A stretch of 14,325 nt of DNA from a virus (lineage: Duplodnaviria > Heunggongvirae > Uroviricota > Caudoviricetes), in the IMG/VR virus record IMGVR_UViG_2778261533_000003. One strand, 5' to 3'. A program made the position numbers. Of this stretch, positions 12,001 through 14,325 are shown in pieces (positions within the stretch are counted from its first letter, which is position 1; each line of letters starts with the position of its first letter).

Positions 12001-14325
12001 AAGCACCAAGTTAATGATAAAGAGAATGTTTAATCACAATCTAAAACACTCTTGTAAGGAATTAAGCATATAAGAGGCTCCCATTACAAGGAAGCCTTTT
12101 TATTACGTTTATGGCGTTGTTTTACGCCTTAAAATCAATATTTAATTCATATTTTACTAATTCTACATATTCAGCTAATTCTGGAATGCTTGCCCCTTGT
12201 GAGTAGGTGCGAAAGGCTTCTGTTTTAGCTATCTGCTCTGTATGTCCGGTAATGGCTCCGATCCGCTGTTCAGGCACTCCTGCACGATCAAGACAAGTGA
12301 TAAACATCCCGCGCAAGCTGTGAAAGCATTGTCTATTTGTAGCGATTGGCAAGACGCTACGACGTAAACGTGAGAACGCTTGAGAATAGAACGGGCCTTT
12401 CTTACCGTCGGTTCTTTTTACTTTATTTGAGTGAGGGAACAAATATTCACCATAATTATGATTTAAATATTCATCGACAATAATCGATAGTCTCGAATGT
12501 ATCGGAACGTGTCTGATCCCTGCCTTAGTCTTACTCTTGCTGATATAAAAACAGCGTATTCCTTCCACAGTTACAATCTCTGACTTTTTCAGGCTTGCCA
12601 GTTCGTCTAATCTGGCCCCTGAAAACAAGCCCATTAAGATAATATTTCTGATCTCCGGCTCCGCTGCATCAAGTAGCTTTTGCATTTGTTCAGGTGTAAA
12701 CGGTTGATAACTCTCGATTGTGCGACGTGCTTCGAGGTTATGACCGTGAAAAGGGTTACTGTCTGGTATTCCGTCATAACGGCGTTTAGCAAATTCATAG
12801 AGCGATCCTAAGCATGTAAGCCAGTTTTGACGAGATTGATCGGCTGCTCCTCGTTGCTTCTGGTCATCTAAGAATACTGTTACAAGCCGTCTGCCTATTT
12901 TCTCAATATGAATATCATCTTTCTGAATGCTTTGTAAAAATAGCTCAACGGCCCTTGCTGATTTCTGTAGTGTTGAGTATGAACGACGCTCTCTGTAGCA
13001 TTCGGCGTATTCGTCACGTATTAGGCACAGGGAAGGCGGTGCATAACCGCGTTTTACGGCTCTTTGCGTGTTTTTATTGGCCCTTGCCTCTGAATGTAAG
13101 GATTCAATAGCTTGTTGTAACCTCCTTTCGGGGTTATCAGGATTATGTTTCCGCTTTAGTTCCTCCCATTCTAATAATAGATGGTTTCTGAATCTTCTCG
13201 CCTCATTCAGATCTCGTGTAGATGTGCTTTTTCTCCACAACTTATAAGGGTAAAGATGACGTAAGTATTTAGGAACAAAAATCTGAAACATCCAGATCCC
13301 ATCTTTTCTTTTAAATAAGTATGCTTGGCTCTTGATCGACACGATAATGATCCTCTATTATCACGTAATCAGTTACCTATGATTGATCACAAAATCTTTA
13401 TTTTACAGCAGGTTATTATGGGTTTCCTCGATTCCCTTCGCCCGCTCCAATTTATCTTCACCTGATCAATCTGCCATTTTTGCTGTATCTGATTTTCTAT
13501 ATTATCTTAATTCAACCGCTTCAGGCTTTTCGCAATCGCTGTAACACTTCCCCATTTTTTTGTAAATAAAAAGCGTTTACGCAATGCAATCCTTTTGTAA
13601 CAACCCAGGTAAAATACCTTATTTTCAAGTTGTTGAATAAGTGGTTATCTACGCTTTTAACAAACGATTGATGGATTATTTTATGAAAGGGAAATCTGCA
13701 TTAACTCTTCTGCTCGCTGGTATATTTTCGTGCGGCACATGCCAGGCGACAGGGGCAGAAGTGACGAGTGAATCTGTATTTAACATTCTTAATTCCACGG
13801 GGGCAGCAACAGATAAAAGTTATTTATCGTTAAATCCAGATAAGTACCCTAATTATCGTCTTCTGATTCACTCAGCCAAATTAAAAAATGAAATAAAGAG
13901 CCACTATACCAAAGACGAAATTCAAGGGTTGTTAACATTAACAGAAAACACACGAAAGTTAACGTTGACGGAGAAACCCTGGGGAACATTTATTCTTGCT
14001 TCTACTTTCGAAGATGACAAAACAGCGGCAGAAACCCACTATGATGCTGTCTGGCTGAGGGATAGTTTATGGGGCTATATGGCATTAGTATCAGATCAGG
14101 GAAATAGTGTAGCCGCAAAAAAGGTTCTGCTCACCCTGTGGGATTATATGTCTACGCCCGACCAGATTAAGCGGATGCAGGACGTCATTAGCAACCCCAA
14201 ACGACTGGATGGAGTTCTGATCCTACCCACGTAATATGGACACAGGCCTAAGCGAGGTTCTGGTTTTCAAATTGTTCCGGACTGAGGCCGCCACACCAAC
14301 TGTGCCGCCGCCACCGATTGTAATC

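Follow-up and report, generated by a model that had tools for sequence, protein, structure and literature searches.

The 14,325-nt stretch of caudoviricete DNA analysed here (IMG/VR record IMGVR_UViG_2778261533_000003; hereafter 'the window') is bracketed by an inverted repeat, and a plus-strand ORF for a putatively exported protein (13641..14234) runs into the right-hand arm. Is this ORF an intact small gene that happens to overlap the repeat, or the remainder of a longer gene that was broken by it? Our analysis identifies the ORF as an ordinary ygeQ/pkgA pseudogene, already annotated as such in RefSeq; both the pseudogene and this kind of lesion are known. The account as a whole, comprising a ygeQ remnant, its truncation by an IS3 copy, an allele in which that IS3 replaces the ETT2 island, and a separate, later IS3 at the left, is one that we hold with high confidence.

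The ORF joins the 5′ end of ygeQ to IS3 sequence

The ORF is present on the plus strand where the first-pass annotation had placed it, its GTG at 13641 being the start of the maximal reading frame only. RefSeq chose ATG 13671 as the start of the pseudogene, while translation likely begins at ATG 13683 (MKGKS...), as annotated for the intact 536-aa gene. From this position the product is 183 aa long and consists of 178 YgeQ residues followed by LILPT. At the nucleotide level, the 5′ fragment of ygeQ/pkgA (13683..14217, +) comprises nt 1–535 of 1611, that is, codons 1–178 and the first base of codon 179, and is continued by an IS3-derived tail (14218..14234, +) that contributes the TG of codon 179 and then ATC CTA CCC ACG TAA, translated as LILPT*. 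All IS3 copies examined end in the same bases. The earlier statement that the last 16 nt of the ORF lie in the right repeat is thus right as to the overlap and slightly off in the figure, which is 17 nt when counted as IS3-derived sequence (18 by the repeat finder's arm).

Alignment to an intact ygeQ (genome locus L002) revealed six mismatches over nt 1–535 and complete divergence from nt 536, the window reading CTG ATC CTA CCC ACG TAA past the breakpoint versus CCC GGG CAA ATG in the intact gene. Positions 13400–14325 are 100% identical to E. coli PSS-07, for which RefSeq labels the gene "ygeQ, incomplete, missing C-terminus" and places an IS3 transposase after it. The N-terminus is hydrophobic, in favour of the 'exported' label given to the ORF at the outset, and harbors a predicted signal peptide (MKGKSALTLLLAGIFSCGTCQA; 13683..13748, +). 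Read from the sequence, cleavage may occur at a type I site after CQA or at a lipoprotein-type Cys; the product name of K-12 ygeQ in RefSeq is 'putative lipoprotein YgeQ'.

Intact ygeQ and its locus

In E. coli, intact ygeQ spans 1611 nt, encodes 536 aa and is annotated as "glycoside hydrolase family 15 protein" (L002:5574–7184). It directly follows the tRNA-Gly gene glyU and precedes degenerate ETT2 type III secretion genes. The ORFs listed last in the 29.9-kb ETT2 island, adjoining glyU, are ECs3736/pkgA (B2863, "phosphorylase kinase and glucoamylase") and ECs3737 (B2862) (PMC3977695). In line with this, the loci compared here and Table 1 of the same paper (PMC3977695) place the island between glyU and yqeG/yqeH, with ygeQ/pkgA as its glyU-proximal gene. 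In the window, 232 bp separate the ygeQ start from an upstream duplicate of the glyU 3′ end (attR, see below). Comparison with the orthologous locus was one of the checks proposed for this ORF; a genome whose glyU site is empty (L002) carries the intact 536-aa ygeQ.

Homologue lengths tell the same story, provided that the search starts from the full-length protein, as a query with the fragment brought back only E. coli fragments of 105–264 aa, without the 536-aa form. The full-length query found 252 homologues, of which 120 were listed; most of these measured 490–590 aa and a few were shorter; matches of 490–590 aa in this list came from E. albertii, Yersinia enterocolitica, Commensalibacter, Elusimicrobiota, Bdellovibrionales, Bifidobacterium and many metagenomic lineages. 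The same 120 included no functional homologue of ~180 aa ending near residue 178. Since the intact E. coli allele encodes 536 aa and the listed homologues are mostly of similar size, the objection that same-length homologues might exist fails, and the suspected truncation is confirmed. As a side observation, the 536-aa YgeQ family is widespread outside enterobacteria, with members in Commensalibacter, Elusimicrobiota, Bdellovibrionales, Planctomycetota and Bifidobacterium at 40–55% identity.

A GH15-like fold visible only in the full-length protein

The first-pass annotation had raised a glycoside hydrolase-like enzyme from a weak Y..W.RDS motif. The 183-aa fragment matched no family in Pfam or NCBIfam, and the GH15 family became visible to Pfam only via the full-length allele: YgeQ of L002 matched PF00723 (GH15) over residues 94–401 with 22.6 bits (E = 5.9e-5), a marginal score that exceeds the cutoff of 22 by 0.6 bits. 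An AlphaFold (AF2) model of a full-length homologue (P0036) reached a pLDDT of 91.3 and a pTM of 0.91, the N-terminal helix 6–18 having low pLDDT. The model forms an (alpha/alpha)6 barrel, and Foldseek returned as top PDB matches, each with probability 1.00, the GH15-like domains of phosphorylase kinase (PhK) beta/alpha, GH15 glycosidases (5z3a series) and the glucoamylases 1ayx, 1gah and 3eqa. A profile of 33 YgeQ family members matched the GH15-like domain of phosphorylase kinase alpha at 1.7e-7. By sequence, the family is nearer to the animal phosphorylase kinase alpha/beta GH15-like domain than to characterised glucoamylases.

The motif itself corresponds to W124-L-R126-D127-S128 (14052..14066, +), of which W124, R126 and D127 are invariant and S128 nearly so across the 33 diverse homologues. 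Together with the marginal PF00723 match and the predicted GH15-type barrel, this conservation upholds the glycoside hydrolase-like reading. Fungal glucoamylases use a catalytic acid and a catalytic base glutamate, located in a WEE motif and in a later Glu. W267-E268-E269 and P490-E491-S492 are invariant in the 33 YgeQ family members, and both come after the break at residue 178, so that the candidate catalytic glutamates are missing from the ORF in the window. When the family profile was aligned by hhalign to an approximate sequence of the A. niger glucoamylase, WxRDS fell on WTRDS and WEE on WEE, at a probability of 3.6% that makes this correspondence a lead only. The break occurs ~three helices into a predicted barrel that extends to residue 530. 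As the invariant WEE and PES residues are absent, we infer that the 183-aa fragment cannot be an active enzyme. No biochemical report of YgeQ glycosidase activity was found, and none of the papers returned by a full-text search for ygeQ names the gene in its title or abstract.

An IS3 copy replaces the ETT2 island in sampled relatives

The sequence that cuts ygeQ short is the right end of an IS3 copy (14218..14325, −), comprising the terminal inverted repeat and the tail of the transposase (...SPEQFENQNLA*) and running off the window. IS3 proper begins at 14218 (TGATCCTACCCACG...), and the reverse strand of 14218–14325 ends in the IS3 terminal repeat ...CGTGGGTAGGATCA. This segment is 98–100% identical to annotated IS3 copies, including IS3D/insF4 of K-12 (98.2%). 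The breakpoint alignment thereby names the agent of the repeat-mediated truncation that had been proposed: it is an IS3 copy.

IS3 is recognised by terminal inverted repeats with TG...CA ends, a length of ~1.26 kb and an orfA/orfB transposase produced by programmed −1 frameshifting. The window itself displays only 108 and 63 nt of right ends, and these hallmarks are seen via the identical PSS-07 copy, which is complete at 1258 bp (L001:18819–20076), runs from TGATCTTACCC to GGGTAGGATCA with TGATC...GGATCA ends, and is annotated as 'IS3-like element IS3 family transposase, programmed frameshift'.

Of 5426 complete E. coli genomes, 190 carried the exact ygeQ::IS3 junction. On its far side, the IS3 of PSS-07 abuts yqeH at nt 551, the last 82 nt of yqeH being missing, and its flanks, GTTC and TAGA, lack a target duplication. 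A simple IS3 insertion leaves a short (3–4 bp) target-site duplication; as the flanks GTTC and TAGA show none, the PSS-07 copy did not arise in this way. An independent IS3 in the ygeQ of strain 1585m1 serves as a control: there, a 4-bp GAAC duplication is found and both gene halves are kept. The flanks of the PSS-07 copy derive from ygeQ and yqeH, two genes separated by ~30 kb where the island is intact (size from PMC3977695), and the three junction-bearing genomes sampled all had the architecture glyU–ygeQ′–IS3–yqeH′–yqeG. With yqeH′ on the far side and no duplication, a single IS3 therefore replaces the whole ETT2 island in the genomes examined.

IS3 thus abuts ygeQ at nt 535, and its terminal repeat contributes the final five sense codons together with the stop. 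For the loss of the ~30-kb ETT2 island we propose one of two routes, an IS-adjacent deletion or recombination between a pair of IS3 copies. Translation of the ORF would yield 183 aa, comprising a predicted signal peptide, a small N-terminal subdomain and no more of the barrel than its first few helices. An intermediate with IS3 at nt 535 and the rest of ygeQ was not found, the sole two-piece match being the independent insertion in 1585m1.

The window can be connected to this allele. Its right IS3 carries a C that changes K to Q in the transposase tail, a variant common to the three scar copies examined, while two other IS3 copies have A at this position. Because of this shared C, the right IS3 of the window very probably belongs to the same ETT2-deletion allele, and the identical junction together with the shared variant suggests that yqeH′ lies beyond it in the source genome. 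The junction ygeQ(535)::IS3::yqeH(551) offers a clean lineage marker, present in the 190 complete genomes. No mention of IS3 at the ETT2 scar was found in the accessible literature.

The left IS3 copy is a separate, later insertion

The inverted repeat was called with arms at 1–64 and 14217–14280, 64 nt long and 98% complementary. Each arm is an IS3 3′ end, which is why the repeat lies far beyond chance. It is the left edge of the window that fixes the arm length, as the right IS3 continues to 14325 and beyond. At the left, the last 63 nt of a second IS3 copy (1..63, +) lie in opposite orientation, clipped by the edge. It had been pointed out that this copy reproduces the final codons of the ORF after an in-frame stop, and so it does: the reverse complement of 46..72 reads TGA TAC CTG ATC CTA CCC ACG TAA. 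The match is trivial, since the codons are IS3 sequence. Over the 63 comparable bases the two copies differ once, at position 19, where the left copy has A and the right one C; the A is shared with an unrelated IS3 copy. That the repeat pair truncated a flanking gene therefore holds for the truncation and not for the pair or the position, with ygeQ sitting between the repeats and the pair representing two independent IS3 copies.

The left IS3 lies 474 bp inside the element integrated at glyU, measured from attL, and the element resumes at 64. Its junction with the element (window 1–66) was absent from the 5426 complete E. coli genomes and from the GTDB species representatives. This absence and the A at position 19 mark the left IS3 as a separate, strain-specific insertion; it is a later arrival of a different IS3 variant. 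The right junction is the older of the two, as the 190 complete genomes have it and none has the left one. With the left junction absent from the searched genomes and the element uninterrupted in related ones, with or without the ygeQ::IS3 scar, we conclude that the ETT2 deletion came first, leaving ygeQ′::IS3, that the phage-like element then integrated at glyU, and that the second IS3 inserted into this element last.

A later inversion of the segment between the two IS3 copies is possible. IS3 ends at 1–63 (+) and 14218–14325 (−) do bracket a passenger in the layout of a composite transposon, and it has been considered that the inverted pair turns the 14.2-kb segment, with the capsid-encoding glyU element and the ygeQ stub, into an invertible or composite-transposable unit. 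We regard this as highly unlikely: neither the 5426 complete E. coli genomes nor the GTDB representatives contained a second site of the 14-kb unit, and the segment occurred only at glyU. If it were true, the IS3 pair could mobilise or flip the satellite-like element independently of the element's own integrase; no movement was seen.

The glyU-integrated element

Between the left IS3 and the ygeQ fragment lies a phage-like element (element body, 64..13428) that is integrated in the 3′ end of the tRNA gene glyU and is separate from ygeQ. It measures ~13.9 kb when intact, and on account of the left IS3 its first 474 bp are missing from the window. The glyU 3′ end constitutes attL, and comparison of an empty (L002) with an occupied site (L003) delimits attR as a 22-nt duplicate of that end (TCGATTCCCTTCGCCCGCTCCA; 13429..13450, +). 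Genomes that lack the element match the window from 13428 onward. ARAGORN called no tRNA in the window, glyU lying beyond the left IS3.

The element encodes a major capsid protein (8797–9825; PF03864), a 613-aa protein matching a tape-measure PHROG (10173–12014), a 406-aa tyrosine integrase (12122–13342, −), a second, short tyrosine recombinase of 224 aa (1970–2644, −) and a 221-aa replication-initiator-like protein (4885–5550). None of the element ORFs tested matched a terminase or portal family, and the element could be of the satellite type. A share of ≥80% of the window, mostly the glyU element, was found in at least 17 complete E. coli genomes; related genomes have the element uninterrupted, whether or not they carry the ygeQ::IS3 scar. 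The closest copy, in Z1323HEC0016 (L003), is 99.9% identical over window positions 64–13591; homology ends there, upstream of the ygeQ start, and is followed by yqeG. This strain represents a different deletion allele, with ygeQ and all of ETT2 gone and no IS annotated at the junction.

One further stretch of the element stood out. Positions 2645–4520 (~1.9 kb) contain no ORF of ≥60 aa and are packed with repeats, e.g. two near-identical copies of ~75 nt that lie 184 nt apart (3429–3505 and 3613–3688), perfect tandem 23-mers (3333–3378 and 3518–3563) and a 21-nt array of 2.9 units (2659–2719). The element copy of PSS-07 is ~334 bp longer than that of the window, with most of the extra length upstream of position 4885. 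An Rfam scan of the window, including 2645–4520, identified no family. The repeat-packed region is possibly an origin/iteron region or an uncharacterised RNA.

Other lesions of ygeQ

Mutational attrition of ETT2 has been described as widespread (PMC3032704, PMC7058095), and ygeQ has been struck repeatedly by insertion sequences. Besides the break at nt 535, we observed attrition alleles that end at nt 1137 (K-12 type), 1027, 644 and 56. In K-12, RefSeq annotates a ygeQ of 264 aa, then the ygeP pseudogene and, just beyond the ygeP remnant, an IS2 (L004 12362–13692); homology to intact ygeQ runs to nt 1137 and stops near this IS2. In Sakai, ECs3736 and ECs3737 are two ORFs of 1059 and 606 bp (PMC3977695). 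The IS3 of strain 1585m1 mentioned above (L005:3967–5224) entered ygeQ at nt 966 and in the other orientation. The ygeQ(535)::IS3::yqeH(551) scar is one of many degenerate ETT2 states.

Alternative explanations

An intact short gene for a small exported protein of ~185 aa, overlapping the repeat incidentally, might be proposed, as the ORF is open, begins with a plausible signal peptide and retains its native upstream region, and as the search with the fragment returned many short proteins (105–264 aa). Those short entries that were inspected (4 of 35) turned out to be other broken E. coli ygeQ alleles or contig-end fragments, whereas the listed relatives outside Escherichia are mostly 490–590 aa in length, with a few shorter. 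The ORF moreover borrows its last five residues and its stop from IS3, matches no Pfam or NCBIfam family when taken alone, and breaks off ~three helices into a barrel predicted to reach residue 530. The homologue lengths and the breakpoint alignment rule this explanation out, leaving it next to no probability. A mis-joined or collapsed contig at a repeated IS3 fares hardly better. Both window ends do stop inside IS3, as those of short-read contigs often do, yet the right junction recurs base for base in 190 complete assemblies from unrelated hosts and countries, and an assembly artefact is thus exceedingly unlikely; of the left junction one can say no more than that the searched collections lack it.

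More has to be said about a single event generating both IS3 copies and the truncation, be it an intramolecular transposition of the ygeQ-side IS3 with inversion or a composite transposon that captured the 14-kb segment. The geometry agrees with such an event, in that both inner junctions are inward-facing IS3 right ends, as expected of replicative inversion or a composite transposon, and the left junction, seen in no other searched genome, is hence recent. However, the ygeQ::IS3 junction occurs without the left junction in the 190 complete genomes, and two such loci examined (L006, L007) have no glyU element, which means that the right junction predates the left copy. The single difference in 63 bases points the same way: with the right copy sharing the C of the three scar copies and the left one the A of an unrelated IS3, it is unlikely that the left copy was freshly replicated from the right. 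A second location of the 14-kb unit was also not found in the searched genomes. As the cause of the truncation, a single event is ruled out by the occurrence of the right junction without the left, and we consider it very improbable overall. The ygeQ remnant, cut by the IS3 of an ETT2-deletion allele and joined only later by a second IS3 at the left, remains the preferred account.

The ORF should consequently be labelled as a ygeQ/pkgA pseudogene resulting from an IS3-associated ETT2 deletion and not as a gene for a small exported protein. It adds a further example of insertion sequences eroding the ETT2 island and has little significance beyond correct annotation; locally, the only thing out of the ordinary is the second IS3, whose insertion into the glyU-integrated element is apparently unique.

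Comparison with known systems

Full-length YgeQ resembles GH15 enzymes and the GH15-like domain of PhK alpha/beta in its predicted barrel fold, its marginal PF00723 match and its conserved WxRD and WEE motifs. It differs from them in that the similarity is very weak (22.6 bits; 10–17% identity in structural alignments) and in possessing an extra N-terminal subdomain and a signal peptide, while the fragment in the window lacks most of the domain. With respect to K-12 ygeQ (b2863) and ygeP (b2862), or Sakai ECs3736/pkgA and ECs3737, the window carries the same gene at the same locus, which is broken there too; in contrast to those alleles, its break lies at nt 535, was made by IS3 and is accompanied in sampled relatives by loss of the whole island. 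With the ETT2 attrition alleles (Ren et al. 2004, as represented in the papers that cite it, PMC3032704, PMC7058095 and PMC3977695), the scar has in common an IS-associated deletion of the type III secretion genes between yqeH and glyU. The inserted sequence, finally, equals the 1258-bp IS3 of E. coli in its ends, length, two-ORF transposase with programmed frameshift and 98–100% identity, and the scar copy stands apart from it by its private C variant, the K to Q change in the transposase tail.
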